A stretch of DNA of 64,000 nucleotides from Candidatus Omnitrophota bacterium (GTDB lineage: Bacteria > Omnitrophota > Gorgyraeia > Gygaellales > Profunditerraquicolaceae): NCBI GenBank assembly GCA_028712375.1, contig JAQTQG010000003.1, positions 14,619 to 78,618 on the forward strand, given 5' to 3'. Position 1 is the first letter of the stretch. Every line of letters starts with the position of its first letter. This document shows, piece after piece, positions 4,062-19,037 of the stretch. The position numbers were made by a program, and so were the translations under genes. The notes under the pieces were generated by a model, which was given only the letters and a program-made list of their open reading frames with translations, was not told the origin of the DNA and ran no database searches.

Positions 4062-4370
4062 TTACGTCTTTTTAAGTGGCGTACCATCTGAATCTACCAT
4101 CCTATTTGAAACAATTAGAATTAGATCGATTAACCACCACATGCCAAGACCTCCAAGCGTGCATAATTTCAATATCCCTAACCCTACGTAACCAAGATAG
4201 AATCTATCAAATCCCCAATATCCGAGAAAAAGAGAAAGCAATAACGCCACTAACCAACTTTTACCTTCTTTCTGTAGCCCACTAATTGATCTTCCAGATA
4301 CTGCACAACCGCACTTAACGCAAATAACGGCTTCATTGTCTATCTCTGCACCACATTTTTGACAAAACAT
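4062..4370 (-). CDS. zinc-ribbon + TM2-domain membrane protein
   Basis: N-terminal CxxC...CxxC ribbon (MFCQKCG...CVKCG). The C-terminal [33 protein letters not shown] fits the TM2 domain consensus. Confidence 0.55.
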
Positions 4371-4392
4371 TAAAGCCTCCTTTATCTTAAAT

Positions 4393-4764
4393 TTATCTTC
4401 CAGTTATAGAATTAATTATAGTCATAGGATGGACAAACCACAGAATAAGAAGTATTGTGAAAATTGTCCCCATAATTACGCCAAACATAGCCCTACCCAT
4501 TCCGTGTTTTTCAGGGTTTCTCTTAATGTCCCTTATCGCGAGAATACCAAATAGCAAAGCAAACGGAGCTGGAATAAAAAGAATGGAAAAGAAAGCTAAA
4601 TAGCCCGCTGTAATAGCATATCCTGATCTTCCCACTGGCAATAAAGCACGAACAAGGGCATCCTGTCCTGGATCCTTGTTTATTTTTGCTCCTGTAGGAA
4701 CTCCGCACTTCATACAAACAACAGCATCGTCTTTAATTTCTCCACCGCATTTTCTACAAAACAT
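4393..4764 (-). CDS. zinc-ribbon membrane protein (paralog of the preceding gene, DUF4190-like)
   Basis: Same MFC+KCG...C.KCG ribbon start as 4062-4370, followed by three predicted TM helices. Confidence 0.5.
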
Positions 4765-4835
4765 TTTGCTCCTCCCTTTTATTTCCGAAACCAGGTCTTT
4801 TATTCCTTAGTATTTTAGCTATATGTAGATAGCTC

Positions 4836-5228
4836 TTAATTCTTTCGGACACATTCTGCCTCGACTATATTCCCCCCAGGCATTACTGTGAACATTTTAG
4901 TTCCCGTGGTTCCACAAACAGACGGTGCTGCAATAATCCCATATTCGTTAGGAAATAAATTTACTCCATAGTAGTAGCCATTCACTGTTTTGCTATTGTA
5001 AGCTTCAAAATTAGCGAAATATTGAGTAACCTCATCTCCAGTAGTAGGATATTGCCCCCCGTGGGAAGATGCATAAACCTCAAGCGCTGTAGATATATAC
5101 CTAACCGTTGCTTTTGCAGCAGCTTCATTTTTTGCTATATTATTTCCACAACCCATTACAAAACCCCCAATCAGGACACCCATTAACACAATCCAAACTT
5201 TTCTCATTCTACTCCCTCCTTTTTTCAT
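4836..5228 (-). CDS. small lipoprotein/secreted protein with pilin-like segment (hypothetical)
   Basis: Signal peptide with a possible lipobox (VMGC). The segment AKNEAAAKATVRYISTALEVYA resembles type IV pilin/pseudopilin bodies. Confidence 0.3.
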   Translation of the reverse strand: MKKGGSRMRKVWIVLMGVLIGGFVMGCGNNIAKNEAAAKATVRYISTALEVYASSHGGQYPTTGDEVTQYFANFEAYNSKTVNGYYYGVNLFPNEYGIIAAPSVCGTTGTKMFTVMPGGNIVEAECVRKN

Positions 5229-5279
5229 ATATTATCACCTAATTTAATAGGTGTAAATAGAAAAGACCGACAATAGTAG

Positions 5280-5531
5280 GTGTTCAAAGAGAGGATTTTA
5301 TTGGAAAATGTTAATATGGAAAACATCAATATCAGGTTCGGTAAACATTTGAGGGAATTAAGGAAGGAACGGGAACTGACACAAGAAGAGCTTGCTGAGA
5401 TTTCGGGGCTTGACTATAAATATATCCAACGTCTGGAAGGTAAAAAGCCTTCTTCTCCTACCCTAAATTCATTAGAAAAGATTGCTAAAGCCTTTAATAT
5501 AAGACTCTCAAAATTACTTAAATTTAATTAA
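5280..5531 (+). CDS. XRE-family HTH transcriptional regulator
   Basis: 83 aa. LRELRKERELTQEELAEISGLDYKYIQRLEGKKPSSPTLNSLEKIAKAF is a canonical Cro/C1-type HTH. Divergent from the upstream cargo genes. Confidence 0.7.
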   Translation: MFKERILLENVNMENINIRFGKHLRELRKERELTQEELAEISGLDYKYIQRLEGKKPSSPTLNSLEKIAKAFNIRLSKLLKFN

Positions 5532-6193
5532 TACCAACCATCAAGAATACACATTAGAATGCTTAATTCGTTAAGAACGGCCCGAAACTTCTTGTCCTTC
5601 TTGTAGTGCTTGTTATAAGATTCTTCACCTTGGACAACAAGATATTTCTTCTTTTTTGAATCCCAATCGAATTTAATCCTTGTGCCTTCGGCCTTAGTCG
5701 TAACAGTACGGAGTACTCCATCCTTCTTCATTCTCTTAGCATATTCTTCCTCTGGAATGCCGTCTTTACGAGCATGCTTGCCAATAAACTTCTCATGGAT
5801 CTCACGCACATAATCAATCCACTCTTGCTCTTCACTAGGCGGCTTATAACCTTCTGGCAGAATATCACTCATCTTCTTTGCATTACTCACATAACGAGAA
5901 TAAGCCGTAACATCACCAGTGCCGATCCAACGGTCAATGTCACTCTTGCGGAATATGGCTCTACCATCAGCTATACGTGAGAACGGCATCTTTTCCTGAC
6001 GCACCCAACCATCTATAGTCGTTTGTGGCACGCAAAGATATTCTGCTACTTGGACCTTACTTAAATGAATCCTTTTTGTTTTTTTGAATGTTTCGGATTC
6101 TTGGAGGGATTTTTGATCTAAAAACTCACCACAATGACGACACTTAATAGCTTCTTCTTGGATTTCTTCAGCACAAAATGGACATTTCTTCAT
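5528..6193 (-). CDS. zinc-ribbon + excisionase/Xis-type HTH (HTH_17-like) domain protein
   Basis: Starts MKKCPFCAEEI...CRHCGEF. The segment LSKVQVAEYLCVPQTTIDGWVRQEKMPFSRIADGRAIFRKSDIDRWI matches the MerR/Xis excisionase DNA-binding domain. C-terminal half unknown. Confidence 0.5.
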   Translation of the reverse strand: MKKCPFCAEEIQEEAIKCRHCGEFLDQKSLQESETFKKTKRIHLSKVQVAEYLCVPQTTIDGWVRQEKMPFSRIADGRAIFRKSDIDRWIGTGDVTAYSRYVSNAKKMSDILPEGYKPPSEEQEWIDYVREIHEKFIGKHARKDGIPEEEYAKRMKKDGVLRTVTTKAEGTRIKFDWDSKKKKYLVVQGEESYNKHYKKDKKFRAVLNELSILMCILDGWY

Positions 6194-6198
6194 ATCAA

Positions 6199-7509
6199 TT
6201 ATTTAGCTAAAGTAAGGCTTTTGAGTGAGTTGGCAAAAAATTCACCAATTATAGATTCTTCATAAGAGATGCTCTCACCTTTAGGTAAGATATAGAGATT
6301 CTTGATTTCATTCATAAGAGAACGGTAATTCTGAACATCAATTGAACTAGAATTAAGATTATCTCTATAGGGGTTAAGTGTTTTCATTTTTTCATTAAGA
6401 TCTTCAATTTTAGAGAAAATTTTATTAATTCTGTTAAAAATTACCTGGTTGGTATAAAACACTTCAAGCTTAATCAACTCTGGCCACATAGCATGCTTAT
6501 TTGCAGTATTAAAATCTTTATAATTCAATAATACCCAATGCGAATCTGCGTATAAATAATTATTTACCCCTATAAAAAGTAGCTGATAGTATTCTTTTAA
6601 ATCCCCATCAAGAGCAGCTAGATAATTACGGGTCACCTTTGCCTCGGGATCTGAATTTATCTTCTTTAAAACAATATCGCCTTTTCGACTCAACTCCTCT
6701 TCTTCGGATTTAATGAATTTTCTAACCTTTTCCTTAGAAATTTCAGTTACATTATCCAATAGCCATTTTGCTACTGTGAGCTTAAAATTTCTTAAACCAC
6801 CATATGAAAGATGCTCTAGGCCATCAATATCAGTAAATTTTTCTACTTCAGGCCGTAGTAAAAGACAAACTTTTATTCCTAATCCATGCATTAAACCATA
6901 CTCATAACTAACACTGTTACTTGCAGAAGATATATCTACAATTCCATATTTACAGGTTTTTATTAATTTGCAAACTTTACAAAGAACAGCTTCAGAGGTT
7001 AATTTATCCTTGGCTATGATTGGAATTAAACCAAACTTAGTTAATATTTCTTTTAAAGCTGATTCGCAATCCTCATATTTTTGATAAGGTATATCTAAAA
7101 AAACGTTATTCTCGTTAAATTCCTGTGTAATTTCATTATTCAAATCACAAGCATCCTTTGCTAAAGGCCCACAGGCATTAATAAAGACTTTTTCCGAATC
7201 CACACTTTTTTGTTTAGGCTTTGTAGCATTCTCCTTGCCACTTTCTTTTTCCAATTTTAACTCTTCTATTGCCATCTGAACTTGACTTTTCATTATGTTG
7301 AATGCTGGTTTCAAAGTATAAGAAGAAAGTGGTAAATTAATTTTGTGGGCATTTTGTATAAAATTATAGTAATATTGTTCATTAAATTTCAACAATGGTG
7401 CAACTTTGTTCGACCAATCAATACATGCTTGCTGAGAAGGAAATCCCTTTTCGACTTCCTCTATATTATAAAGATCTTGTAATTTTTTTAAAATTCCACC
7501 GAAATCCAT
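6199..7509 (-). CDS. hypothetical protein (436 aa), first/last gene of nuclease operon
   Basis: No recognisable catalytic motif. The C-terminal region ...CKYGIVDISSASNSVSYEYGLMHGLGIKVCLLL... suggests a Rossmann-like strand-loop-helix. Tightly linked to the downstream nuclease genes. Confidence 0.4.
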   Translation of the reverse strand: MDFGGILKKLQDLYNIEEVEKGFPSQQACIDWSNKVAPLLKFNEQYYYNFIQNAHKINLPLSSYTLKPAFNIMKSQVQMAIEELKLEKESGKENATKPKQKSVDSEKVFINACGPLAKDACDLNNEITQEFNENNVFLDIPYQKYEDCESALKEILTKFGLIPIIAKDKLTSEAVLCKVCKLIKTCKYGIVDISSASNSVSYEYGLMHGLGIKVCLLLRPEVEKFTDIDGLEHLSYGGLRNFKLTVAKWLLDNVTEISKEKVRKFIKSEEEELSRKGDIVLKKINSDPEAKVTRNYLAALDGDLKEYYQLLFIGVNNYLYADSHWVLLNYKDFNTANKHAMWPELIKLEVFYTNQVIFNRINKIFSKIEDLNEKMKTLNPYRDNLNSSSIDVQNYRSLMNEIKNLYILPKGESISYEESIIGEFFANSLKSLTLAK

Positions 7510-7558
7510 CTTTTAATATTTTTAAATATTTGTGGAGTAACCAGCAAGTAAGTTAACA

Positions 7559-8317
7559 TTACCCTACTTTAACTTCTTTCAGTATTTTCTGGTAAATACA
7601 GAAATCACAATCAGCACTATATTCAGGAACTACGGGACCCACCAAGCATTTATACATCTCAATAATCTTAGCCTCAATCCAAGAATCATTTCCGTCATAA
7701 GGTATTATTTTGATATCGAAATCAAGCTTTGCACTAAAGGTATCCCTGTCAGTAAGCCCATTGCAATACACAAAATAACCGGTTGGAGATACATTAAAAC
7801 CGTTTTTTCTGAATAACCACTGGTATATTTCCATCTGCCTCTTATAAGATATCTGCCAATCAGCATCTATGCTTACTTCTTCTTCCTTTGATGTGCTCTT
7901 GTAATCTACGATAAATAGCTGGCCATCCGATGAGGCCCAAACGTCATCTATCCCCCCTGTAAGTAAAAGATTTGTCGGTATGTGCAGATATTCAATACCA
8001 CCATGAAGAGCATCCCGCCAGATATTCAGCTTATCGTGCTTAAAAGGAACCGCCTTGATCCCATTTGCTTCCATAAGAGGATGGCTTATCTGTTTATTCC
8101 GATAGACATCGAATTCTTTCTTCAGTAACTTGTCTACTGCTGAATTTAGTGTAAAAGGGAACCCGGGTGGTTGCCCTACGCCTAATCTTCTGTCTAAATA
8201 GAAGCAACGTGGGCAATTTATGAATAGTTCAATTTTGGAGCGGCTTAGTTTAAATGGAATTTTACTATGCGGATCGAATAAATTCTTAGTTTTTCTACCA
8301 GTATAGTATTTAGACAT
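7559..8317 (-). CDS. Cas4/RecB-like PD-(D/E)xK nuclease with Fe-S cysteines
   Basis: 252 aa. Motifs GGIDDVW...LFIVDYKST (D...D/ExK) and QMEIYQW (QxxxY). An N-terminal CPRC and a C-terminal C...CDFC fit the 4-Cys cluster arrangement of Cas4/AddB-type nucleases. Confidence 0.6.
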   Translation of the reverse strand: MSKYYTGRKTKNLFDPHSKIPFKLSRSKIELFINCPRCFYLDRRLGVGQPPGFPFTLNSAVDKLLKKEFDVYRNKQISHPLMEANGIKAVPFKHDKLNIWRDALHGGIEYLHIPTNLLLTGGIDDVWASSDGQLFIVDYKSTSKEEEVSIDADWQISYKRQMEIYQWLFRKNGFNVSPTGYFVYCNGLTDRDTFSAKLDFDIKIIPYDGNDSWIEAKIIEMYKCLVGPVVPEYSADCDFCIYQKILKEVKVG

Positions 8318-8461
8318 AGACCTACAGACTATTATTCCCGATTCTTCTTTGGCTATCTGCCGCCGTAGAACTTAAACTAGGCTTGGATTTAGGTTATCTA
8401 TCCATCAGCTTAAAAGCTTCCCGCTTTCAACAATGCTGATGTAGTGAAAAAACTATAAATC

Positions 8462-10351
8462 TTAAGAAATAGTTACAACCGCTTCTGCTTCTGACCAAGT
8501 GTTTATCAAATCCAATATTTTTTGAATTTGAATCGGATAATCTTCTAATGAAAGATCTTCATATTTCATAAAAGCAGCTCCGATCTTGCCATGTTTTTCT
8601 ACTTGATTTGTAGCTATGCCTATAATGTTTTCAAGTTCTGGTGTAATTTTGATGATCTTCCCAATATTTTTATCCAAAGAACCATCAATAAAATCGTTTT
8701 CTTTAAACATTCTGAGCTCAGATTCTTCTTTGTCTGTTTTATTAGGTTTATTTTCTGGAAAGTTAATAGGGTCTATATCATGGATAGCAACGTAAGGAAC
8801 TTTGAACTTATTAAGTACTCGCATAAATATATGTATATTGGTTTTTCCGCCACATTCAACTACGCATATGTTTTTAGCAACGAAGTCATATTTTTTATCT
8901 TTTACAGTAAATTTTGTTGCCCAGAAAGGAACTATAAATTTTTCGGTATCACCTTCAACCAATACTACTTTCTTAGAGAAAAACATTTCACTACGCGATA
9001 AGTCAAAAAGGCTTAAATAACGGAAAACTTTTTTTAACCTATTGTTTTCCTGTGTGGTTTCAGCAGCAAATATATCTCCAACAAATTGAAAGGTATTTGT
9101 TGGACCTTTTTCCTCACGCCCAACGATCACGATATTCTTGTATTCAAACATATCTACAAAAAAGTTAGAATGTGTACAGGCCAATATTTGATCAGTAGTT
9201 GCGATATTCCTTAAAACTTCAATCATCTTTCTTTGGCCATTAGGATGTAAATATAGTTCTGGTTCCTCAATTGCAAGTATAAAATTTTTCACCAAGGCTT
9301 CCGGTTGATCTTCTTCTACAATTACAGTACTTACTGTTTTAGCATAAGCTCTTATATAAGCTAAAATTAGTGCACGTTGAAGACCATGTCCCTTAGAATC
9401 AATCGAAGTAGGCAAAGCGTCATCTAAAGTAATATTCACATCTTTAAATAAATCAACAAGTTCGGGAGTGACGATTTCAATACCAACCTTTGTTCCTGGC
9501 ATACTTTCGCTTATTATGCCTGTAATAGTGCTTTCGAAATCTTTTATTTCCTGTAATCGGTCTGAGTCATCTCCAGTACCTGATTTATTTAAATATTTCT
9601 TCAACCCTTCGAGCTGGTTCTTAACCTCTTCAAATTTTGGATTCTTTAAAACTATCCTATTTGTTAAATCGGTTACTAACTTCCCTAATACAGTTTGCTG
9701 TGTAGTCTTAGATTCATCACATGCATCTTTTACAGCAGGAACCAAATAAAATTTAGGCAACAAATCAGCAAATACTTCTTTGAGGCCTGCAGGATTCTTT
9801 ATCCAATCTGGATCACCAAATTCCACTTTTCCGTCCTCTATACACTTCATAACCCCTTCTTTATATGAAGCCTGGGTCACGGTTCCCTTATCAGTTTTAA
9901 AATAGTCTGGTAAATTTTTATCTTTCACAATTTTTGCAATATCCCCTTTATATTCATCAAATCTTGATAGATCAAAATGGAGCTCGCGAGGCTTAGCTTG
10001 CCATCCATAAAACGTCGTTTCATATTTTTCACTCTGATTATTATACTCTACGACCTTTTTCACTCGAATTGCATGGTCATAGATCCAATGCTTAAGATAC
10101 TTTTGTTTTTCATCATACTCAGTTAATCTATCAAATGTCAAAATAATAGTGATTGGTTCATTATTCTTTTTGAAATAAAAATATTCCTCGTTTATCCCCT
10201 TAACCGAATCTTGATAGAATAATTCTATTGCTCGAAGTATATTGGATTTACCTGCATTATTCTCTCCAATAAACATAGCCAATGAATCTATTTCAATTTC
10301 TATGCTGTCTATGGACTTAAATTTGTGTATTTCGACTTTACGTAACTTCAT
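8462..10351 (-). CDS. OLD-family ATP-dependent endonuclease (ABC ATPase + TOPRIM)
   Basis: 629 aa. N-terminus MKLRKVEIHKFKSIDS...FIGENNAGKSNILRAIELF is the OLD/AAA_15 Walker A. The C-terminus VVLVEGDTEKFIVPF...VVECGGKTN...VAIHDID is a TOPRIM domain with E, DxD-like and G motifs. Confidence 0.8.
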   Translation of the reverse strand: MKLRKVEIHKFKSIDSIEIEIDSLAMFIGENNAGKSNILRAIELFYQDSVKGINEEYFYFKKNNEPITIILTFDRLTEYDEKQKYLKHWIYDHAIRVKKVVEYNNQSEKYETTFYGWQAKPRELHFDLSRFDEYKGDIAKIVKDKNLPDYFKTDKGTVTQASYKEGVMKCIEDGKVEFGDPDWIKNPAGLKEVFADLLPKFYLVPAVKDACDESKTTQQTVLGKLVTDLTNRIVLKNPKFEEVKNQLEGLKKYLNKSGTGDDSDRLQEIKDFESTITGIISESMPGTKVGIEIVTPELVDLFKDVNITLDDALPTSIDSKGHGLQRALILAYIRAYAKTVSTVIVEEDQPEALVKNFILAIEEPELYLHPNGQRKMIEVLRNIATTDQILACTHSNFFVDMFEYKNIVIVGREEKGPTNTFQFVGDIFAAETTQENNRLKKVFRYLSLFDLSRSEMFFSKKVVLVEGDTEKFIVPFWATKFTVKDKKYDFVAKNICVVECGGKTNIHIFMRVLNKFKVPYVAIHDIDPINFPENKPNKTDKEESELRMFKENDFIDGSLDKNIGKIIKITPELENIIGIATNQVEKHGKIGAAFMKYEDLSLEDYPIQIQKILDLINTWSEAEAVVTIS

Positions 10352-10542
10352 GGTGTTATTATACCTCTTTTTATTACCCCTAACAATAATTTCAAGTTTT
10401 TCACTGAGAGCTTATCTGCATGCCTCAAGCCACAATCATACCTTAGAAACCGATAAAACTTCATAATCTGCTTAGTTTCTTCTATTAACTTCCTATGCCT
10501 TATGTTCCATAGCCGAGTAATCGGACTGATCATCTTTACCAC
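10348..10542 (-). CDS. small ORF (64 aa) overlapping the OLD start by 4 bp; possibly translationally coupled
   Basis: Only the ORF geometry (ATGA-type overlap with the 8462-10351 start). No motif. Confidence 0.25.
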   Translation of the reverse strand: MVKMISPITRLWNIRHRKLIEETKQIMKFYRFLRYDCGLRHADKLSVKNLKLLLGVIKRGIITP

Positions 10543-10708
10543 CTCCTGCTATCAATAGACGCAGAAAGTGGAAAAATCTAACAGGATTTTTAGAATTTAA
10601 CTTCGTTTTTTACTTAATTTTGGGCAGGATTTATATATGGAATTTCTCTATGAACTTCGCTTTTGGTATAAATTACGAAGCTATATTATTGAAACCTGAA
10701 ATTTGCTT

Positions 10709-12220
10709 CTATTCTGGAGCTCCCATAATAAAACCTGTGGTAAGCCCTTTTTCTTTAAACCAACTTTTTAATATGCCCTTACTTCCAGCAATTGCCGTAT
10801 CAATTTCTGAATCCGTTGGGGCACTCCACATTTGCCAGTTAAATAATCTTGCTAAACATGCTTTTATTTTTGAGTAGTCGCTATCCACTAAATCCCTATA
10901 AAATGGCTTAGCTTTCTCATCTCCATCATGAATATCTAATTTCGCACATATTGCGTCTCGCAATAGTTCTGACCAGGCCATAATTGATTTTGAAGAAAAT
11001 ATCCTACTGAGTTTACGCTGATTTTGATCACTAGGCGCGGCTGCAGGATTCCAATGTGAAAGCGCAAGTTCAAAAATCATATTCATTAAAGCAATAACAT
11101 TCTTAAACTCTGATTCTCTCCTATATTTTTCTGAAAACATATCATCATCAAGAGGCTCGGTATAAAGAAAACAAGCAAGGATTGACTTAGAGAGCATATC
11201 CACAGTAAGCGGTTGTTCATTGGAGCTCCTATTACTTGTTGAAACGAGTGGTTTGAGTTTATTAGACTCATCTTCAAGAATAGAATTATATAAGTAACTA
11301 CGGAAACGCTTGTTTCGCTCGCCCCGCGTAAGAGATATGTCTTTCTGCTCTAGAAATGACAAAAAACCACTTTCATTTTTTTTCTCAATATCTTCTCTAT
11401 TTTTATACTCTTCAAAATCTTTCCCAAATTGATTCCCTAATTTAAGAATTAATACTGACGAAAAAAATCTTGTTTGGGCGAATTTATCATGTGCTGATAT
11501 ATTAGCTTGATTAAGCATCCTCAAGTCGGGATCAAGATAGATCTTGCATTCAAATGTCTTTCTCCCATTCCACAATATCGCAGCTGCCTTGTGTTGACCA
11601 TCAAAAAGCAATATCCTATTATTTGAAACACGTCCTATTGAAGGTTGCAAAACTGGATAAATCTGGAAATGACGAAACATTTCAAATACTTTATCAAAAA
11701 TCAAATAACGTGGTTGTAGGCCCAAATGTTCATTATCATCATCATCGCTGTTAAGAATTGATATGGGTAAATTACCATAAAAATATTTCCAACCGGTTCG
11801 CGGACAGGTTTGGATATTAAACTGAGATGAAAAGGAGTGGTGTTGTAAAGTAACTGTTTTATCTTGGACATTAATAGCAACCGCTTCTCCAAAAGACTCA
11901 ATATCACCTGCCTTTTTTAAGTGCGTAATTAGATTACGCAATGTTAATCTATCGCCTTCTTCAAAAAATGATTCAAGTCGAAGTTTTATACGAAAATCCC
12001 CTAGAGGCAACATTCCCTTCGCCTTATTATGGTATTCGCACATAGGTGCAATATTATCAAGTTCTGATTGCCCATCTCGAGCATAAGCCCAAATATGGTC
12101 AAAATGAACCCTCTCCCCTTCCGGGATTGCATGCCCATTGGCAAAGCAAATACGCCCATGTCGATTTAAAATTATTTTCTTTTCATCATCATTGATTTGC
12201 CTTTTTAGAGTAATTGCCAT
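10709..12220 (-). CDS. HNH endonuclease fused to DGQHR (DndB/ParB-like) domain protein
   Basis: N-terminus C..NGH......HFDHI.......N...MCEYHN is an HNH motif. The central LLFDGQHKAAAIL is the DGQHR signature of the DndB branch of ParB/Srx-fold proteins. C-terminal ~200 aa unknown. Confidence 0.65.
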   Translation of the reverse strand: MAITLKRQINDDEKKIILNRHGRICFANGHAIPEGERVHFDHIWAYARDGQSELDNIAPMCEYHNKAKGMLPLGDFRIKLRLESFFEEGDRLTLRNLITHLKKAGDIESFGEAVAINVQDKTVTLQHHSFSSQFNIQTCPRTGWKYFYGNLPISILNSDDDDNEHLGLQPRYLIFDKVFEMFRHFQIYPVLQPSIGRVSNNRILLFDGQHKAAAILWNGRKTFECKIYLDPDLRMLNQANISAHDKFAQTRFFSSVLILKLGNQFGKDFEEYKNREDIEKKNESGFLSFLEQKDISLTRGERNKRFRSYLYNSILEDESNKLKPLVSTSNRSSNEQPLTVDMLSKSILACFLYTEPLDDDMFSEKYRRESEFKNVIALMNMIFELALSHWNPAAAPSDQNQRKLSRIFSSKSIMAWSELLRDAICAKLDIHDGDEKAKPFYRDLVDSDYSKIKACLARLFNWQMWSAPTDSEIDTAIAGSKGILKSWFKEKGLTTGFIMGAPE

Positions 12221-12288
12221 GTGCTACCTCCATCTATTCTATTAGCTTAAAATCAAAATGTGTTTTTGGTAAAAAATTCTATCTATAC

Positions 12289-12501
12289 TCAATGATGCTC
12301 TCTTTCGTATAGAGTGTGCAGTATCTTATATAATCTTTTGCCGTTTGTAACTTGTCCATCACTATTAACAGATACAATCAAATCCTTAGTTGCTAGCCTT
12401 ATCCCGTCATCACCATATTTGAACATTCTTACAACATCACTTAAATAGATAGCAAATCTACCTTTGGGACTTTGAATAATCTTACCTTTTGCACCAGGCA
12501 T
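12289..12501 (-). CDS. small hypothetical protein (70 aa)
   Basis: ORF only. Same strand and operon position upstream of the HNH-DGQHR gene. Confidence 0.25.
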   Translation of the reverse strand: MPGAKGKIIQSPKGRFAIYLSDVVRMFKYGDDGIRLATKDLIVSVNSDGQVTNGKRLYKILHTLYEREHH

Positions 12502-12553
12502 ATTATCCTCCTCTGGATTAAATCAAAGATGGAACCGACACGTATTGTTATAA

Positions 12554-12886
12554 TTAAGCATATTTCTCTTTGTGCATTTCATAATACAAATCAAATATTT
12601 TCTTTGCAATCTTAGAACCTGTGCTATTTTTAATAATACTCATGGTATTCTCTACTGAACCTATCCAAACTTCTCCTTTATGATTTAAAACGGGTCCATG
12701 TTTTGTTAATTGCCTCACAACCCATTCCCAGTCTTTTTGAAATTCCTCAGGAAAATCTTTTGGTTCTAAAACATGGCAGATTAAATATGATCCAATGAGC
12801 CTTGACCTTACGTCTTTTTGACCAACAGCTAAAGCATAAACAACTTCAAATAATTTCTCTTGTACATAAGAATAACTTTTTCTCAT
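12554..12886 (-). CDS. hypothetical protein (110 aa)
   Basis: ORF preceded by an AT-rich promoter-like region (12890-13140). No motif recognised. Confidence 0.3.
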   Translation of the reverse strand: MRKSYSYVQEKLFEVVYALAVGQKDVRSRLIGSYLICHVLEPKDFPEEFQKDWEWVVRQLTKHGPVLNHKGEVWIGSVENTMSIIKNSTGSKIAKKIFDLYYEMHKEKYA

Positions 12887-13139
12887 AATAAATATCTATA
12901 AGCAAAAAAACAACCCTATTTTAGAGAGTTGCCTTAGATTTGACCTAGTTTAACCTCATTACCGCTCCTATTTAAATATAAGTTATTATCCTACCCCCAT
13001 AGCCCAAAATCAACCCTTTTTTAACTGTTCTAGGATAATAAATGTTAAATGAATTTAGTATTCTACACAAATTTCGAAGTAGTAATACTGGACGCAGCAT
13101 CTTAAAAGGTATATAATATTTTTAACAAAGGAAAACACA

Positions 13140-13988
13140 ATGAAGTTTGCCGATGTAAATAAGACCATAATAAAGCTGTGCAAAGATAACAGTTTGGATT
13201 TCTTAGCTGAATGCGAAGCTATCCAATCTGAAGTTGATGCCTGCTCTCTACCTGAAATTCTCGACCATTTAGATAATGCAGGTATCATACCCGAATGTTT
13301 TGATCACGATTCTACGGAAGAAAAGTTGTTCGCAAAGTATTGTGACTCTTTATTAGCTCGTGGGTTACGAGAAATAGGATTAAACGCATATACAATACCA
13401 GAACGCAGTGATGCGGCTGATGTTCAAGGGAAGGGTAGCAATTACACTATTGTTGGAGATGCTAAAGCGTTTCGTCTTAGCAGAACAGCAAAAAACCAAA
13501 AAGATTTTAAGGTCGAGGCTCTTGATAAATGGAGAAATGGATCCGATTTCGCTGTATTAGTAAGCCCTCTTTACCAGTACCCAAATACAAATAGCCAGAT
13601 TTACTCACAAGCAATAAGGTATAATGTTACCCTATTATCTTATACCCACCTAGCTTTCCTAATAAGAAATAGAAATAATATAAAGAATGGCTCTCTTAGG
13701 GGATTATGGGAAATCGGAAAAAAGCTCTCTATTGGTAAAAGCGCCAAATCATACTGGGGATTAATTGACGCTAAAATGCTAGAAATTACCGGGAAGGATA
13801 AAAAGGATTGGGATAGCGCTATAGAAACAGAATACAAATGCTTAGTTCAGAGAGCTAAGGACGAGATTAAGTATTGGGAAGATGAAAAAGCAAAGATATT
13901 AAAATTGTCTCACGATGCGGCAATACAAGAACTAATTAAGGCTAGGAAAATAACAGAAAAGGTCGGAGTTATTAAGCAGTTTATATAG
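13140..13988 (+). CDS. putative Type II restriction endonuclease (PD-(D/E)xK candidate)
   Basis: 282 aa, convergent with and 8 bp from the methyltransferase gene. ...FDHD...ERSDAADVQ...YTIVGDAKAF is compatible with a D...(D/E)xK active site. Inference only. Confidence 0.4.
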   Translation: MKFADVNKTIIKLCKDNSLDFLAECEAIQSEVDACSLPEILDHLDNAGIIPECFDHDSTEEKLFAKYCDSLLARGLREIGLNAYTIPERSDAADVQGKGSNYTIVGDAKAFRLSRTAKNQKDFKVEALDKWRNGSDFAVLVSPLYQYPNTNSQIYSQAIRYNVTLLSYTHLAFLIRNRNNIKNGSLRGLWEIGKKLSIGKSAKSYWGLIDAKMLEITGKDKKDWDSAIETEYKCLVQRAKDEIKYWEDEKAKILKLSHDAAIQELIKARKITEKVGVIKQFI

Positions 13989-13995
13989 CGTTGAT

Positions 13996-16200
13996 TTAAA
14001 GAGATTTTCTTTTTGTGATTTTGAAGCCTGAATAGAGTGTTGAGATGTAGTCTGAAATACTCATAATCATATCTGCATCACATCCACCCCCAGTGATGTT
14101 CTTATAGTTGACCAGTAACCCAATTCCCTGTGCGAATATTGCCAACCCAATGTCTTTCTCGCTCCATCCCGCTTCTTTCAACACATTACCATAATCAGAT
14201 ACGTAAGAAGATACCTTAGCAATTATTTCGGGGAAAGATATTGATGATTTCTCTTCCATTGTTTTATGACAGACGAAGGTAATGCAAGTATCTATTGCTT
14301 CTGATGTCATGCCGCGAGGTCTTGCTTTTCTTTCTATACTAAGTGGTTGCACGCTTGTGATTATAAAATTAGTGTCTCTAAACGCCCGAATAATTGCGTC
14401 CCATCCGCCTAGTGAGCTATGGCTATAAATAAACGATAGGACGCCGTCATATTTCAAAACTCTCTCAGCTTCTTTTATCGCCTTGCCTAATTCTAAGCAA
14501 TACTTATCGTGAGCTTCAAGGGCCGATTGACTACGAAATGCTGAAGCAACTAATTCGGAACCAAAGCTAGTGTCTTGTTTGTTAAATAAATCCGGATCAA
14601 CATTTTTTAATAAAATTCTTTTCCACGCATAAAAGAAATCCGCTAATATGCTGTAATAAATATTATCATAGTATGGGGGATCTGTTATAATTGCATCAAA
14701 ATAATTGCTCTTAAATGGGAGGTTTTGGGCAATTCCACAGTTTACTTCCGGTTTATATGGAAATTTTTCGATGGAGCTAATGCCTGAAATGATACGGTCG
14801 AGCTTATCCCAAAGATTAGCTGGGCCATTCATTATGGGGTCTATTTCGCCATAATCCCAAAGCATGGGAACGCCTGGACCGCAAAAAGCTCGCCCCATCT
14901 GTTCATTTTGCGAAATCCACATAGATAAACGACAATTCCAATCCACAAGTTGATCAATTAAACTCGCCAATACAGAAATAGCAAAATCCGCCAACTCCTT
15001 TGAATTCTGCTCCTTCAATAACCGATATTCATCTTTCAGACACTTTATCAAAGACAGTAGAACCACCCTCTGCCTTTTATTGACAAAATCACTATGAGTT
15101 TCTATGCCGTAAACTGAGGGGTTCACAATGCCGGACCATTTGGGCAATTTCGTATTTGGAAGACTGCTTTCTAAAGATTTTAATAAATCATTTTCAAGAT
15201 GAGAGATCTTAACGGCTGAGGGAATCAGCAAATCGTTGTTTTCTATAAGCAAAAACTCTTTCCCGGATTTTTCTTTCCGCTTAACAAAAGCAATTAGCTC
15301 ATCTCGAGTGTTGCTAATATCAACTTTTTCAACTATATGAGAGCATTTTGGGCATTTAGCAGACCCATTTCGACCTTCCCAATTTGAGTTATGTTCATAT
15401 TTGTCATCCACTTCCTTAATCCCAATATGCTGTCGATCCTTGGAATTATTTATAATAATTGCTATTCGCTTATTTTTCTTGCGTGACAGCCAGGGTCTTT
15501 TTATTAAATAATATACATATTTACATTTTGGGCATTTTAATGAATACGTCCAGAAATACACTACAGGTGGTCTTTGTTTCGTCTCGGATATCTCACCCTG
15601 CTTACTTCTTGATACCCCTCCCTTCCTCAATGGAAACAATTCATTTGTTGCTTCTTCTAAAGACTTTAAAACACGAATGCCAGATTTCCTTACAATATCT
15701 TCGGCACTTCTTAAATCAACTTTCTGCGAGTATTCAAGATTTGCTTTTTGTATAAAAACAGACAATTCATTCGCATCAATAGAGTATGCTTTGGCACCTA
15801 TGTTGGCTATTTCTAATGGTATTGTTCCTCCACCACCAAACATATCTAGGGCCTTTGGAGGAACTACGTATTGTTCTTTAATAATAGCTCGGGCTTTATC
15901 TATGGCACTTTTGTTTGCATCCCCCGCTAACTCAACCATTATTTCATACATTTTAGGTGTACTTATTTTACATAGAGAAGCAAACGCAAGTATCCTCATA
16001 GCAGAATGAGGTCTTCGAGCCCACCAAACGTGGAGTGTATGCGACGTTTCTCCACTTCGGTATCGTTCCGCAAGACCAGCTATTGAGGCTTCGTAATGTA
16101 AAAGTCCACTATCTATCAAACGATGTTCCGAAGTGTTTGGGATCAGAGCAATTTCAGGACTTGATTGGGTTTTATTTTGACACATACTACTTATTGGCAT
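13996..16200 (-). CDS. DNA methyltransferase, N6-adenine/N4-cytosine type, alpha-class with DUF1156-like N-terminus and internal zinc ribbons
   Basis: 734 aa. N-terminal LHVWWARRP motif (DUF1156-like). Motif I DMFGGGGT. Internal CPKCKY...CPKCSH ribbons (putative TRD). Motif IV ITDPPYYDN. The order I-TRD-IV indicates alpha class. Confidence 0.75.
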   Translation of the reverse strand: MPISSMCQNKTQSSPEIALIPNTSEHRLIDSGLLHYEASIAGLAERYRSGETSHTLHVWWARRPHSAMRILAFASLCKISTPKMYEIMVELAGDANKSAIDKARAIIKEQYVVPPKALDMFGGGGTIPLEIANIGAKAYSIDANELSVFIQKANLEYSQKVDLRSAEDIVRKSGIRVLKSLEEATNELFPLRKGGVSRSKQGEISETKQRPPVVYFWTYSLKCPKCKYVYYLIKRPWLSRKKNKRIAIIINNSKDRQHIGIKEVDDKYEHNSNWEGRNGSAKCPKCSHIVEKVDISNTRDELIAFVKRKEKSGKEFLLIENNDLLIPSAVKISHLENDLLKSLESSLPNTKLPKWSGIVNPSVYGIETHSDFVNKRQRVVLLSLIKCLKDEYRLLKEQNSKELADFAISVLASLIDQLVDWNCRLSMWISQNEQMGRAFCGPGVPMLWDYGEIDPIMNGPANLWDKLDRIISGISSIEKFPYKPEVNCGIAQNLPFKSNYFDAIITDPPYYDNIYYSILADFFYAWKRILLKNVDPDLFNKQDTSFGSELVASAFRSQSALEAHDKYCLELGKAIKEAERVLKYDGVLSFIYSHSSLGGWDAIIRAFRDTNFIITSVQPLSIERKARPRGMTSEAIDTCITFVCHKTMEEKSSISFPEIIAKVSSYVSDYGNVLKEAGWSEKDIGLAIFAQGIGLLVNYKNITGGGCDADMIMSISDYISTLYSGFKITKRKSL

Positions 16201-16463
16201 TTTACAGATAGGCCTTTGCCACGACTTATTTCAAGCACATAGCATTTTTCATTAAGGGGGATCTTACGGGTATATCGCCAACCAAATGAAATACGTCTAT
16301 ATTTCCAATCGATTCTTTTTTTACCTAAATCTTGTCCTTCAAAATTAACCAAAATTTCATCAGCATCATTTAACAACTTTTTAATATCTGGATCTCGCTT
16401 TTGTTTCCATATTATGTATCCCCATTTCCTAGCACGGTTCAAAATTGGTATAGTAAAGGCCAT
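16191..16463 (-). CDS. small ORF (90 aa) overlapping MTase start by 10 bp
   Basis: ORF geometry only. Basic protein with no HTH recognised. Confidence 0.3.
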   Translation of the reverse strand: MAFTIPILNRARKWGYIIWKQKRDPDIKKLLNDADEILVNFEGQDLGKKRIDWKYRRISFGWRYTRKIPLNEKCYVLEISRGKGLSVKCQ

Positions 16464-16519
16464 TGTCTACCTCCTTTTTATTTAGTCTATTGTAAAACGA
16501 TGGAAGAGTCAAGCTTGGT

Positions 16520-17134
16520 TTAAACACTAAGTAGCTCGGCACACTCCGCCAGATCTTCCTTCGTTACGCCCGTGTAGATCTGCGTCGTAGAAACGAACTT
16601 GTGTCCCAAAAACTCCTGCACCTTCCGGATGTTGCCACACTTTCGCATTAACTCCGTCCCAACCGTGTGCCTCAGACAGTGTGGTGAATATCTTCCTTCC
16701 AAGCCACTTTCACTAACCCATTTATTAAGGTTTAACTGCACTGCCCTCTGGGTAATTCTTTTGTTGTTCCTTGATAAAAATAAGGGTTCGCTCAAGGAGA
16801 AGCCTTCATCCTTTGCCTTTCTCTGCCTAATGTATTTATCTATGTGGGCTCTAATATCCTTGTTTAATGGTATTTGCCTAATCCTGTCGCCCTTGCCTTT
16901 TATCTCCAACACTTCCTTTGACGAATAGCCGTTGTGCACATCCTTGGCATTAAGGTTGATCGTTTCACTAAGGCGTAATCCAGTATTAAGCATAAGGTCA
17001 AACATACAATAATCACGCCAGGCTTTCCTGCTGTCGGCAAGTGTCTTTAAGAATTGTTTCTTTTGTTCAGAAGTCAGATATCTTATCGTGTTCCTCTTGG
17101 CCATTTCACACCTCTTCGTTAATATACTGCTCAA
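16520..17134 (-). CDS. tyrosine site-specific recombinase, catalytic domain only (XerD-like)
   Basis: 204 aa. GLRLSE (Arg I), HCLRHT (H-x-x-R), LGH and TQIYTGV (Tyr nucleophile). Lacks an N-terminal core-binding domain. Confidence 0.8.
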   Translation of the reverse strand: MSSILTKRCEMAKRNTIRYLTSEQKKQFLKTLADSRKAWRDYCMFDLMLNTGLRLSETINLNAKDVHNGYSSKEVLEIKGKGDRIRQIPLNKDIRAHIDKYIRQRKAKDEGFSLSEPLFLSRNNKRITQRAVQLNLNKWVSESGLEGRYSPHCLRHTVGTELMRKCGNIRKVQEFLGHKFVSTTQIYTGVTKEDLAECAELLSV

Positions 17135-17540
17135 CCTTAACCCTTACCTTTTCTTTTAATACCTGAAACTCTTCTGAGAACTCGCCATTATCACTAAAAT
17201 CTCTGTCTTTCCATAAATTGTCATACGCCTGGCAGAGAAAATATTGGTATTCTTTATTTTGCGGGGACATCTCAATAGCCTTAAGGATAATTTCAGTGCC
17301 TGTCCTTAAAGAAGTAACCCAGAAAGTTGTAAGCAGAATATATGATTGTTCGTAAAGAAGCTCTGCTCTCTGTTCTTTTGAGAGGCCGTAATTCTGCAAT
17401 AATTTATAGACCCTATCAAGCCTCTCAGATTTTTGTGTATCTCCATCAGGTTCTTGAGCAAAGAGATTAACTAAAAATAATAACGACATCGAAACTATTA
17501 AAATAACTATTATCTGTTTTGTATTCATTTTCACCTCCAA
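17106..17540 (-). CDS. secreted/membrane hypothetical protein
   Basis: 144 aa with N-terminal signal peptide-like MNTKQIIVILIVSMSLLFLVNLFAQEP. Confidence 0.35.
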   Translation of the reverse strand: MEVKMNTKQIIVILIVSMSLLFLVNLFAQEPDGDTQKSERLDRVYKLLQNYGLSKEQRAELLYEQSYILLTTFWVTSLRTGTEIILKAIEMSPQNKEYQYFLCQAYDNLWKDRDFSDNGEFSEEFQVLKEKVRVKVEQYINEEV

Positions 17541-17576
17541 TATCTTTTTTCCTATATATGGCCTGACCCTGGCTTC

Positions 17577-19037
17577 CTATGAATTAGCAAAAAAACCTAT
17601 CTTGGTTTTATTGTCCTTAACAAAGATTCCGTCCTGTTCTAGACTCGCTCCAAACAAAAGGTCATTCATTGTAATAATATTCCTTTTCTCTTGAACCAGC
17701 CGTCGCAGGGCGTGGAAGACAGCATTCTTGATGTAGCCACCACTAAACTGAAATTGTCTGGCCAGAACAGCAAAATCAACACCTTGGGCAAGAGTTACCT
17801 TGCTTGGAATATGCGATCGCCAAATTTCTTTGCGTATCTTCTCATCAGGCAAATCAAATTTAACCTTTAAAGTAACTCTGCGTTCAAGTGCAGGATCAAG
17901 CAAATTATCCATGTTCGAAGTTAAGATTACCACTCCTTCAAACCGTTCAATTTCCTGTAGCATAATATTAACAAACCTAATATCGTGTTCTTGGGCTGCG
18001 AAGTTGCGGTTATATAAAATAGAATCCGCCTCGTCAATACAGATAACAACATTATTTTGCTTTGCTGACTTAAAAATAGAAGATATTTGTTTATCGGTTT
18101 CACCAAACCAACGTGAATTTATTTTGGGAAATTCAACAACAAGCAACTTCTTCTTAAGATGTTTTGCTATTGCCTCAGATAACATCGATTTTCCCGTGCC
18201 GGGCGGACCGTAAAAGAGGAAAACCAATCCTTTGCCATTTTTAATTGTTTCTTCTACACCAAGATCTTCAAGTCCTTTATCCTGCAACCCGGATAATAAG
18301 AAACTGACGTTTTTCTTCACATCGAGAGATAGCTTAACATCTTCAAGAGAATATGCCGGATCCTTTAAAAAACCAACCTCTTCGCAAGGGTGTAAATCTT
18401 TTTTATTTTCTGCCCTTCCAGGTCTAGATTCTTTATACTCCCCACTTATCATCCTAGAAAAAACGTCCAACAAAGACGAACTCATCCCGAAACTGACTAC
18501 GGCCGAGTTGTGGTTGTTTCGATAATATGGGTACAAAATAGAATATTTTAAAAGATTGGCATTTCGGTTAAAATAACGAGACAACCCCATTCTCCCGATT
18601 ACAGAATCATTTAAGTCAAAGATCCTAAGGAGCAGATCCCTTGAACAGATATTCTCTTTTAGGTGCAAGAACTCCAAATAAAGGTAATATAGGAGTATTT
18701 GCTTTTCAAAGATATCCAAACCGTATAGCGAGGCAGTTTTTTCTAACGCAAACTTACTGCCCTTAGACATGGAATCCTGTACCCTTTGCCAAAACAAAAC
18801 TTCTTTTGTCTTTATTGTTGAGTCCAATTCTGATACATTCTTGCGGAATGCCTCTACATCATCCTTAGATTTCTTAATAAGAATAATTCTTTTGTTTTGG
18901 TAAAGTTCGCAGATCTTGAAATATTCTTCGATGTATTCTTGGTCACCTGAAAGAAAATTATTTTCCGGCATTACCTTTTCTCCTTTCTTTCTGCACAAAC
19001 TTATCAAAATCCTCAACTGTCTTTTTGAGCCTTTCAT
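17577..19037 (-). CDS. classic-clade AAA ATPase with unknown ~260-aa N-terminal domain
   Basis: Walker A GPPGTGKSML, Walker B VVICIDEADSI and second region of homology ILTSNMDNLLDPALERRV (CDC48/FtsH-like AAA). The true start may be the internal Met at ~18971. Confidence 0.8.
   Translation of the reverse strand: MKGSKRQLRILISLCRKKGEKVMPENNFLSGDQEYIEEYFKICELYQNKRIILIKKSKDDVEAFRKNVSELDSTIKTKEVLFWQRVQDSMSKGSKFALEKTASLYGLDIFEKQILLYYLYLEFLHLKENICSRDLLLRIFDLNDSVIGRMGLSRYFNRNANLLKYSILYPYYRNNHNSAVVSFGMSSSLLDVFSRMISGEYKESRPGRAENKKDLHPCEEVGFLKDPAYSLEDVKLSLDVKKNVSFLLSGLQDKGLEDLGVEETIKNGKGLVFLFYGPPGTGKSMLSEAIAKHLKKKLLVVEFPKINSRWFGETDKQISSIFKSAKQNNVVICIDEADSILYNRNFAAQEHDIRFVNIMLQEIERFEGVVILTSNMDNLLDPALERRVTLKVKFDLPDEKIRKEIWRSHIPSKVTLAQGVDFAVLARQFQFSGGYIKNAVFHALRRLVQEKRNIITMNDLLFGASLEQDGIFVKDNKTKIGFFANS

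Follow-up and report, generated by a model that had tools for sequence, protein, structure and literature searches.

A rare single-gene family combining an HNH nuclease domain with a ParB/sulfiredoxin-fold domain, candidate defense nucleases

A reverse-strand gene of a Candidatus Omnitrophota bacterium encodes a 503-aa protein whose sequence contains both an HNH-type motif (HFDHI...DNIAPMCEYHN) and the string LLFDGQHKAAA, which raises the question of what such a protein does and whether it acts alone. In the 64,000-nucleotide stretch of DNA analyzed here (the window), this gene (positions 10709 to 12220) is preceded by two co-directional ORFs of 70 aa (12289 to 12501) and 110 aa (12554 to 12886), with gaps of 52 and 68 bp between the three; all of these coordinates were confirmed and, like the domain coordinates given below, refer to the reverse strand. 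The gene sits between a HindIII-type restriction-modification (RM) system and an OLD gene, in a low-GC island with an integrase. A first-pass annotation read its product as an HNH nuclease fused to a domain of the DndB branch of ParB/sulfiredoxin-fold proteins and suggested that it might sense DNA modification or, alternatively, form a defense module with the two small ORFs.

The 503-aa gene is real and complete. Its stop codon occupies positions 10709 to 10711, a GGAGG ribosome-binding site lies just 5' of its ATG, and the AF2 model of its product has a mean pLDDT of 83. The best 120 homologues listed are all 444 to 507 aa long, mostly 503 to 504 aa at 100% coverage, which rules out a truncated piece of some longer conserved enzyme, a concern raised at first pass; full-length homologues of 503 to 504 aa are 60 to 84% identical to it. 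An Rfam scan of positions 6000 to 17500 found nothing, and promoter and terminator scans stayed at background level. The family is unannotated and combines an HNH domain, a putatively nucleotide-binding domain of the ParB/sulfiredoxin (Srx) type, and a helical domain; Pfam recognizes only the first of these, so that about four-fifths of the protein is unannotated.

The HNH (beta-beta-alpha-metal) domain is N-terminal, spanning approximately residues 1 to 105 (11906 to 12220). The window protein itself scores 19.1 bits against Pfam HNH (PF01844), just below the gathering score of 21.4, and is matched by PHROGs HNH families at 2e-7. Across the family, Pfam HNH is matched by 40 of 49 diverse members (best, 1.3e-11), and the corresponding part of the AF2 model matches the HNH domains of Cap5, Cas9, and McrA; the assignment is no chance match. 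The full feature set is present, namely, the predicted catalytic residues D41-H42, N56, and N65, a zinc site formed by C25/H30 and C61/H64, and the beta-beta-alpha fold. C25, H42, and N56 are conserved in at least 90% of the family, and the catalytic and zinc-binding residues are kept across members that diverge down to ∼20% identity. The likeness to known HNH defense effectors (the HNH domains of Cas9 and IscB, PtuB of Septu and retron systems, Cap5, and McrA) is limited to ∼70 residues, and the 503-aa protein comes without a guide RNA, an ATPase partner (PtuA), or a SAVED sensor.

A three-stranded beta linker at approximately residues 106 to 155 (11756 to 11905), assigned from AF2 secondary structure (strands 115 to 119, 122 to 127, and 130 to 135, pLDDT of ∼90) and matching no family, leads into the ParB/Srx-fold domain at approximately residues 140 to 251 (11468 to 11803). 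The latter has the fold of the ParB N-domain and sulfiredoxin, its closest solved folds being canonical ParB, PadC, KorB, and Srx, and carries the motifs P-I-x-I-L-N-S-D-D, Q169-P-R171, and F206-D-G-Q-H-K211. H210 is invariant, and F-D-G-Q-x-K and P-R are at least 90% conserved. QPR aligns with ParB box I, and the box I-like motif P-I-x-x-I-x-N-D-x-x-x-Q-P-R of the family aligns to Myxococcus xanthus ParB; box II reads GQHK, as opposed to GERR in canonical ParB, with Lys replacing the phosphate-binding Arg in 49 of 49 members. Compared with canonical ParB, Noc, KorB, PadC, and sulfiredoxin, the family lacks an HTH, a parS-binding domain, and a ParA partner, and it occurs in defense settings, whereas canonical ParB serves segregation. 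ParB-fold domains work as switches that bind ATP, GTP, or CTP, and ParB-HNH fusions have been named among uncharacterized "novel fusions" (PMC12704722). The rest of the protein, residues 252 to 503 (10712 to 11467), is an all-alpha domain with conserved E283, R368, E371, and W465, for which no solved relative was detected. Searches of PDB chains with the whole protein and with family profiles gave only weak HNH and ParB matches (E ≥ 0.03), and domain and fold searches detected none of the modification-reading domains SRA, PUA/EVE, SBD, and wH. Thus, profiles and model folds bear out the fusion of an HNH domain to a DGQHK-bearing ParB/Srx-fold domain in one polypeptide.

Placement of this domain in the DndB/DGQHR branch fares less well. 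Weak matches to TIGR03187 do recur: among 30 diverse domain sequences, 7 gave sub-threshold hits, the best at an E value of 0.0036, and these matches run collinearly into the helical region (residues 200 to 421 against positions 96 to 273 of the 276-position profile). One weak match to TIGR04172 (DGQHR_dnd_1) was also seen. The TIGR03187 scores fall far under the cutoff, however (13.3 bits for the window protein against 58.85); Pfam DUF6551 is matched more often (9 of the 30 sequences), and DndB (PF14072), DUF262, and ParBc are among the families listed in neither of two Pfam scans. The signature of DndB/DGQHR proteins comprises a QR pair, the pentapeptide DGQHR, and FxxxN (PMC4619093); the protein has Q-P-R, DGQHK, and L236-x3-N240 ("TNxxAH"), and the last motif residue is K, never R, in all 49 diverse members inspected. 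A profile of the ParB-like domain run against a collection of 5.8 billion proteins retrieved only fragments of the same family and no DndB or DGQHR proteins, and no DGQHR or DGQQR protein was found among the ORFs of the window and of the homologous loci fetched to that point. The common ground is a DGQH core motif on a ParB/Srx fold, and the DndB/DGQHR label is weakly supported. The remark that no dnd or ssp genes are nearby holds for ∼9 kb on either side, and dnd, ssp, and dpd genes are absent both near the window gene and from the families that recur in 142 neighbors of homologues. A DndB- or DpdB-like accessory protein, that is, a regulator or ATPase assisting phosphorothioation or 7-deazaguanine insertion, would fit the DGQH motif and the recurring TIGR matches; given this lack of context, the low scores, and an intact catalytic HNH domain that is foreign to both DndB and DpdB, we give this role almost no credence.

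Comparison of 86 loci that carry nuclease homologues addressed whether the gene works alone. The 70-aa ORF has a strong ribosome-binding site (GGAGG), but its product has no detectable homologue and forms a singleton cluster among ∼15 billion proteins. The 110-aa protein belongs to an independent small family of 22 homologues (38 to 90% identity), whose genes lie beside a Type III RM system, in arrays of small genes on one strand, or with a PIN toxin-antitoxin pair on one side and a TIR gene on the other, and never adjacent to a homologue of the 503-aa gene. A three-gene module, in which the small proteins would cooperate with the nuclease (as an immunity or regulator pair, for instance), is suggested by the co-directional arrangement, the short gaps, good ribosome-binding sites for two of the ORFs, and a source annotation that calls both small ORFs genes. 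Nevertheless, tblastn of the two small proteins against the 86 loci gave no match, and relatives of the nuclease that are 84% and 78% identical have wholly different upstream genes, which leaves such a module highly improbable and places both ORFs outside the conserved unit. The OLD gene lies 357 bp downstream of the nuclease gene, and tblastn of its product against the same loci returned a single insignificant fragment, so that OLD is absent from 86 of 86 related loci and the proposed independence of the nuclease gene from the OLD operon is supported. Neither the small ORFs nor OLD can be retained as partners.

The neighborhoods of homologues show an autonomous gene in recurrent defense contexts and contain no conserved partner: any given neighbor family is found at 12 of 84 loci at most. 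The recurrent settings are Type I/III RM operons, toxin-antitoxin and defense islands, and integron cassettes flanked by attC-like repeats. RM genes lie within ∼7 kb in 18 of 80 loci, and in at least 9 loci, hsdR/hsdM or mod/res genes are on the same strand and nearly abut the gene. In four loci (L016, L029, L035, and L043), it has hsdR on one side and hsdM on the other, each separated from it by 0 to 61 bp, and co-transcription with them is likely. Other neighbors include toxin-antitoxin pairs, SduA, AbiU2, TIR, ApeA-HEPN, and cyclases.

The family is rare, with 113 matches among the genomes of 185,579 species, and yet it spans many phyla at 60 to 84% identity. Such a rare and patchy distribution at high identity fits horizontal transfer. 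An integron cassette is defined by a single ORF bounded, within an array, by attC sites (R'' RYYYAAC ... R' GTTRRRY, forming an imperfect hairpin). Judged by the repeats alone, single-ORF cassettes flanked by attC-like repeats are present in three loci: L089, where 6 repeats that start with CCTAAC and end with GTTAGG flank each gene and the one repeat that was folded forms a long, imperfect hairpin; L001, with 17 repeats ending in GTTAGAC or GTTAGGC; and L012, with 11 to 12 copies. Direct repeats flank the gene in 9 of 82 loci. A search of the window, including the surroundings of the gene itself, turned up neither island-bounding nor attC-like repeats, and the cassette status accordingly holds for homologues and not for the window copy. 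Conserved flanking DNA as a mobile unit across taxa was also considered and rejected, as the similarity between loci consists of shared RM genes only. The family was not found by tblastn in plasmid and phage collections (E ≤ 1e-3), and a search of IMG/VR gave one distant match.

A family that stands alone, moves between phyla, and resides in defense islands, restriction operons, and integron cassettes most likely consists of self-contained anti-phage nucleases. We therefore favor, with somewhat better than even confidence, a self-sufficient, single-polypeptide DNA endonuclease that defends against phages or other invading DNA. The domain composition, the intact catalytic and putative NTP-motif residues, the autonomy of the gene, and its defense, RM, and integron-cassette contexts are established computationally. 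From these, we infer nuclease activity, NTP dependence, an anti-phage role, and a means of sparing self DNA, whether through foreign modification or an infection cue. DNA cleavage would fall to the N-terminal HNH domain as the effector. The ParB/Srx-fold domain in the middle, which carries QPR and FDGQHK where ParB has its boxes I and II, would bind and probably hydrolyze a nucleoside triphosphate and could serve as a switch that licenses or restrains the nuclease, like the DUF262 domain in GmrSD, BrxU, and SspE; the large helical domain probably mediates recognition of DNA or the target, or else oligomerization. Several observations count against a defense function: ∼80% of loci have no RM neighbor, the very high conservation (503 to 504 aa, no indels) is atypical of fast-evolving defense genes, tblastn did not find the family in the plasmid and phage collections, and the leading PADLOC matches listed for 49 members show nothing beyond HNH-level similarity (PtuB and Cas9).

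Proteins that combine a ParB-like NTPase with a His-Me nuclease act as Type IV restriction enzymes, GmrSD and SspE being examples (PMC4619093, PMC12065111), and fusions of COG1479/DGQHR ParB domains to HNH domains linked to Type I RM were noted earlier (PMC3632139). Like GmrSD, BrxU, and SspE (DUF262 plus DUF1524), the family unites a ParB/Srx fold with a DGQ-x-basic motif, a His-Me-finger nuclease, and a helical domain in the single polypeptide of a single-gene system, and it likewise occurs in defense islands and either within or adjacent to Type I RM and BREX-type loci (PMC4619093, PMC3632139, PMC12065111). The order of domains is reversed, however: the nuclease comes first, whereas GmrSD has an N-terminal DUF262 (DGQQR) followed by a C-terminal DUF1524. 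Moreover, the nuclease is a classical zinc-binding, Cas9/IscB-like HNH domain (PF01844) instead of DUF1524, and the motif is DGQHK instead of DGQQR, alongside a canonical ParB QPR box. DUF262 and DUF1524 appear in neither Pfam scan of the family, and the analogy is therefore architectural and not based on homology; GmrSD, BrxU, and SspE are also missing from the 25 highest-ranking PADLOC families for 49 members and, as solved structures, from the structural neighbors listed. A Type IV, modification-dependent enzyme, in which the ParB-like and helical parts read a foreign modification (either hypermodified bases or phosphorothioate), so that HNH cleavage is confined to modified DNA, would need no methyltransferase or immunity gene, as is the case here, and would share with Type IV enzymes and COG1479 genes the frequent position inside or beside Type I/III RM operons (PMC3632139). 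The undetected reader domains, the unmatched DUF262, and the missing dnd/ssp association weigh against it, and the sequence is silent on substrate preference; we consider this possible but doubtful.

The four insertions between hsdR and hsdM invite comparison with PrrC, which likewise lies within a Type I RM locus. By such logic, the protein could serve in abortive infection or as a "back-up" nuclease, with an infection cue, not DNA modification, as its trigger: the ParB-like domain might respond to a shift in the nucleotide pool, or else the neighboring RM complex might silence the protein until a phage anti-restriction attack on that complex frees it, with indiscriminate DNA degradation to follow. 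The nucleotide-switch behavior of ParB-fold domains and the co-occurrence with toxin-antitoxin and Abi genes agree with this scenario. Nonetheless, an adjacent Type I RM system is missing from most loci, the integron cassettes and the window among them, and is therefore no obligatory partner, and the searches identified no sensor besides the ParB-like domain; on balance, gating by infection appears rather unlikely. Less probable by far is a selfish or mobile-element role, in which the protein, as an HNH endonuclease of the homing type or a maintenance nuclease akin to ParB, would promote its own spread or the stability of its carrier element instead of defending the host. Very high identity across phyla at constant length, precise insertion between genes of RM operons, occurrence in cassette arrays and beside integrases and transposases, and the involvement of ParB-family nucleases in plasmid conflicts (Osa, cited in PMC12065111) are all compatible with selfishness. 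However, mobility in L089, and probably in L001 and L012, is explained by the attC-like repeats and not by the protein, loci of different taxa share no flanking DNA except RM genes, plasmid and phage collections lack the family, and known homing HNH enzymes do not resemble a protein of 503 aa that has two further conserved domains.

The preferred reading, a self-contained defense nuclease, has a bolder version that we hold to be unlikely although worth stating: an unrecognized single-gene immunity family in which a ParB-type nucleotide switch, possibly CTP/GTP-driven and clamp-like, is wired to an N-terminal Cas9/IscB-like HNH domain, and a new 250-residue helical domain reads the target. Such a nucleotide-gated clamp nuclease would have arisen independently of GmrSD and would be spreading as an integron cassette.

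Integron cassettes are known to encode defense genes (bioRxiv 10.1101/2024.07.02.601719; PMC12614218), and the attC-flanked cassettes and Type I RM operons that house this family would offer a concrete example of integrons and RM loci as stores of defense genes. With two carriers in culture, Leptospira sanjuanensis and Rubrivivax gelatinosus IM 151, the family is open to experiment. If the inferred function holds, the family would be a compact (1.5-kb), partner-free defense nuclease missing from PADLOC v2.0.0; the principle of joining a ParB NTPase to a nuclease, as in GmrSD, BrxU, and SspE, would gain a second, permuted architecture; and a tractable case of a ParB-fold nucleotide switch controlling a nuclease would be at hand.

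The 503-aa protein is encoded on the minus strand at 10709-12220, co-directionally with a 70-aa ORF (12289-12501, minus strand) and a 110-aa ORF (12554-12886, minus strand), a layout that matches the first-pass annotation exactly. The gaps among the three ORFs are 52 and 68 bp, and a GGAGG ribosome-binding site lies ahead of the 503-aa ORF and of the 70-aa ORF, where it is strong. The motifs HFDHI...N...CEYHN and DGQHK both occur in the 503-aa sequence, the former having been read as an HNH nuclease signature. That reading was upheld: the Pfam HNH model scored the window protein at 19.1 bits, slightly below its gathering score of 21.4, and the HNH assignment is secure because PHROGs HNH families match the protein at 2e-7 and because, among 49 diverse family members, 40 matched Pfam HNH (best 1.3e-11) and 31 matched the IscB HNH model. 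Conservation of C25, H42, and N56 reaches at least 90% even though the aligned members share only 20 to 35% identity with the window protein, and the zinc site is retained with varying ligands (the window subfamily has C..H/CxxH, and distant members have CxxC/HxxC). Given this conservation of the catalytic residues and the zinc site, the HNH nuclease is predicted to be active.

The HNH domain is joined to a ParB-like domain, for which structural comparisons relied on AlphaFold2 models with low confidence at residues 162-167 and 243-265. Its structural neighbors (scores in parentheses) were PadC (9.8), KorB (8.2), Arabidopsis thaliana sulfiredoxin (8.0), pNOB8 ParB (7.8), SbnI (6.9), and a serine kinase (5.8), and Foldseek probabilities of the predicted model to ParB, Noc, PadC, and Srx were 0.95 to 1.00. 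In a domain profile, the segment P-I-x-x-I-x-N-D...Q-P-R...P-x-L-x-P-S aligns to box I of Myxococcus xanthus ParB. From collinearity and published motif comparisons (PMC4619093), we infer that F-D-G-Q-H-K occupies the position of box II, which reads GERR in ParB, GCHR in Srx, and DGQHR or DGQQR in DndB and DUF262 (PMC4619093). In the family alignment, H210 is invariant, and conservation is 90% or higher at F206, D207, G208, Q209, K211, P170, R171, and D159; the last position of the motif is K in all 49 diverse members and never R.

The proposal that DGQHK places the protein in the DndB branch was weakly supported: the motif and the ParB/sulfiredoxin fold are present, but matches to the DndB/DGQHR profiles were below cutoff. 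The TIGR03187 model matched the window protein with an E value of 0.05 (13.3 bits; cutoff, 58.85), with residues 200-421, which run from the motif to within the helical region, aligning collinearly to positions 96-273 of the 276 in the profile. When the ParB-like domains of 30 members were searched alone, TIGR03187 was matched 7 times (best E value, 0.0036), Noc 3 times, ParB twice, and DGQHR_dnd_1 and SerK once each. The Pfam scan of the same 30 sequences yielded DUF6551 as the sole recurrent match (9 of 30; best, 1.2e-5) and no match to PF14072 (DndB), DUF262, or ParBc. Because seven weak matches to one of 18,950 models are unlikely to arise by chance, a distant relationship to TIGR03187, and with it to the DndB/DGQHR branch, is credible if weakly supported. 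By curated criteria, the domain falls outside DndB/DGQHR, and the signature motifs QR, DGQHR, and FxxxN (PMC4619093) are altered to QPR, DGQHK, and LxxxN in the window protein. Identification of the protein as a DndB was rejected: it scores below threshold, no dnd gene was seen within ~9 kb of its gene, and it contains a nuclease.

When 5.8 billion proteins were searched, 865 matched, of which the best 120 are nearly all 503 to 504 aa long, with 100% query coverage and 60 to 84% identity; the best matches came from Omnitrophota (including a 100% match), Chloroflexota, Actinomycetota, Desulfobacterota, and Leptospira. The possibility that the protein is only part of some longer conserved enzyme, which had been named as grounds for refutation, is excluded by these lengths and the full coverage. 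Among 1.84 billion cluster representatives, searched exhaustively with a profile, 759 matched at E ≤ 1e-3, the full-length members being mostly 463 to 560 aa. The main subfamily is uniform across phyla (503 to 504 aa, essentially without indels, 60 to 84% identity), which is unusual for a defense gene, and a second subfamily lies at ~35% identity. Among 185,579 species with one genome each, 113 stretches encode a relative, scattered over many bacterial phyla, along with one partial match in a Nanoarchaeota MAG. The family is thus rare and patchy, a distribution consistent with horizontal transfer. Plasmid and phage collections gave no match; among 2.9 million viral contigs, a sole relative was found, at 32% identity (IMG/VR UViG_3300037160_000193, 4259-5731; L098), on a contig that may be either truly viral or a misclassified island.

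Whether the nuclease has fixed partners was assessed in 86 loci with homologs of its gene, plus a few added later, with neighboring ORFs called by a crude longest-ORF procedure. In tblastn searches of the 86 loci, the products of the 70-aa and 110-aa ORFs and the neighboring PD-(D/E)XK protein had no match, and the window OLD protein gave only one insignificant fragment. Each family of clustered neighbors was confined to 12 or fewer of 84 loci. Even for the two closest relatives, at 84% and 78% identity, the neighbors are unrelated: one has a cyclase gene upstream, and the other lies between a TIR protein on the upstream side and an ApeA-HEPN protein with a DUF87 ATPase on the downstream side. 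The 110-aa ORF has a small family of its own (22 homologs, without a Pfam match), whose members lie in same-strand small-gene arrays, downstream of a type III RM system, or with a PIN toxin-antitoxin pair on one side and a TIR gene on the other, the nuclease never being alongside at the loci examined. The 70-aa ORF, a singleton among ~15 billion proteins, is an orphan gene. The first-pass suggestion of a module comprising the three ORFs is therefore ruled out as a conserved unit, and the 503-aa gene is independent of OLD. The 110-aa family, seen at L091, L093, and L096, itself appears as a stand-alone unit in the same-strand arrays, and those of L093 bear weak attC-like repeats (GCCTAAC...GTT).

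In the window, the next gene downstream, beginning 357 bp past the stop codon, encodes the 629-aa OLD-family ATPase/TOPRIM protein (8462-10351, minus strand; PADLOC Old, 2.8e-88), followed by a gene for a 252-aa Cas4-like PD-(D/E)XK nuclease (the pair spans 7559-10351, minus strand). OLD classes are usually paired with a UvrD/GajB-type helicase, so the combination seen here may be an unusual one for OLD. A 436-aa protein (6199-7509, minus strand) with weak matches only, to TIR-like proteins (CAP12/Pycsar TIR; E value, 0.011) and PADLOC PDC-S35 (1e-5), may be a further defense gene of the same island. Upstream of the three ORFs, a HindIII-type endonuclease and a DUF1156-type methyltransferase are encoded along with an integrase; the stretch 13140-19037 contains the endonuclease (plus strand), the methyltransferase (minus strand), a short tyrosine recombinase (204 aa), and an IetA-like AAA ATPase. 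The G+C content at 6 to 20 kb is 0.32 to 0.39, below most of the window, and the region therefore resembles an island. Together with a Phage_rep_O-like gene on the source contig, these features suggest an integrated mobile island.

Elsewhere, the gene recurs in three settings: restriction-modification (RM) operons, toxin-antitoxin and defense arrays, and cassette arrays of integron type. The only Pfam families repeated among 142 neighbors were ResIII (10), SWI2/SNF2 (8), N6_Mtase (7), EcoEI_R_C (5), and Methylase_S (4), and PADLOC identified MTase_I (8) and REase_I (6). At four loci (L016, L029, L035, and L043), hsdR and hsdM flank the gene, all on one strand, and 4 to 16 bp separate it from hsdR; it also abuts hsdM (gaps of 0 to 61 bp) at all of these except L016, where a protein kinase gene intervenes. 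It precedes hsdM-hsdS at L009, L011, and L074 and adjoins mod/res-type genes at L034, L050, and L081. Counts of RM adjacency made by single-exemplar BLAST represent lower bounds. In two unrelated lineages (L004-L006, Actinomycetota, and L087-L088), thrS is found a few kilobases downstream of the nuclease gene, which could be coincidence or a shared insertion hotspot.

Direct repeats flank the gene in 9 of 82 loci, and at L089, L012 (Turneriella), and L001 (Leptospira sanjuanensis) that repeat recurs after most or all genes (6, 11 to 12, and 17 copies, respectively). Starting with CCTAAC and ending with GTTAGG, the L089 repeat can form a long hairpin with imperfect pairing and is on these grounds likened to attC; that of L001 ends in GTTAGAC or GTTAGGC. 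These long arrays, with repeats of 100 to 250 bp and attC-like ends, look like sedentary chromosomal integron arrays. No attC-like repeats were found around the window copy. Toxin-antitoxin and defense genes (SduA, AbiU2, TIR, and ApeA) abound at L001 and L089, L001 combining SduA and AbiU2 with multiple PIN, BrnT, and HigB pairs. Defense genes are known integron cassette cargo (bioRxiv 10.1101/2024.07.02.601719; PMC12614218). The single-ORF cassette state is independent evidence of self-contained function, and the cassette form offers a vehicle for the wide spread of the family.

The best-supported model is that the 503-aa protein is an autonomous defense endonuclease, its activities being predicted. 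The HNH domain would cut DNA, the ParB-fold domain would bind and hydrolyze an NTP, gating the nuclease, and the helical domain would provide target recognition or oligomerization. ParB-fold proteins can bind CTP, ATP, or GTP, with specificity unpredictable from sequence, and ParB-HNH fusions are listed as uncharacterized novelties (PMC12704722). Self DNA could be spared either by modification dependence, as the first-pass annotation had proposed, or by an infection or nucleotide cue with an abortive outcome; the computed data favor neither. The logic of a ParB-like NTPase coupled to a nuclease is known from GmrSD, BrxU, and SspE (PMC4619093, PMC12065111), and the model fits the frequent fusion of COG1479/DGQHR ParB-like domains to HNH, PD-(D/E)XK, or HEPN nucleases and their link to type I RM (PMC3632139). 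The working logic may resemble that of GmrSD-type enzymes, but the protein lies outside that family: neither DUF262 nor DUF1524 was matched in the Pfam scans, the domains come in reversed order, the HNH is classical, zinc binding, and Cas9/IscB-like, the ParB QPR box is retained with a DGQHK motif, and the helical domain lacks a detectable solved relative. Among the top 25 PADLOC v2.0.0 families listed for the 49 members, there was only HNH-level likeness (PtuB, Cas9, and HNH_I-A). The family is a good candidate for experimental testing, since cultured carriers exist, namely, L. sanjuanensis and Rubrivivax gelatinosus IM 151 (L025).
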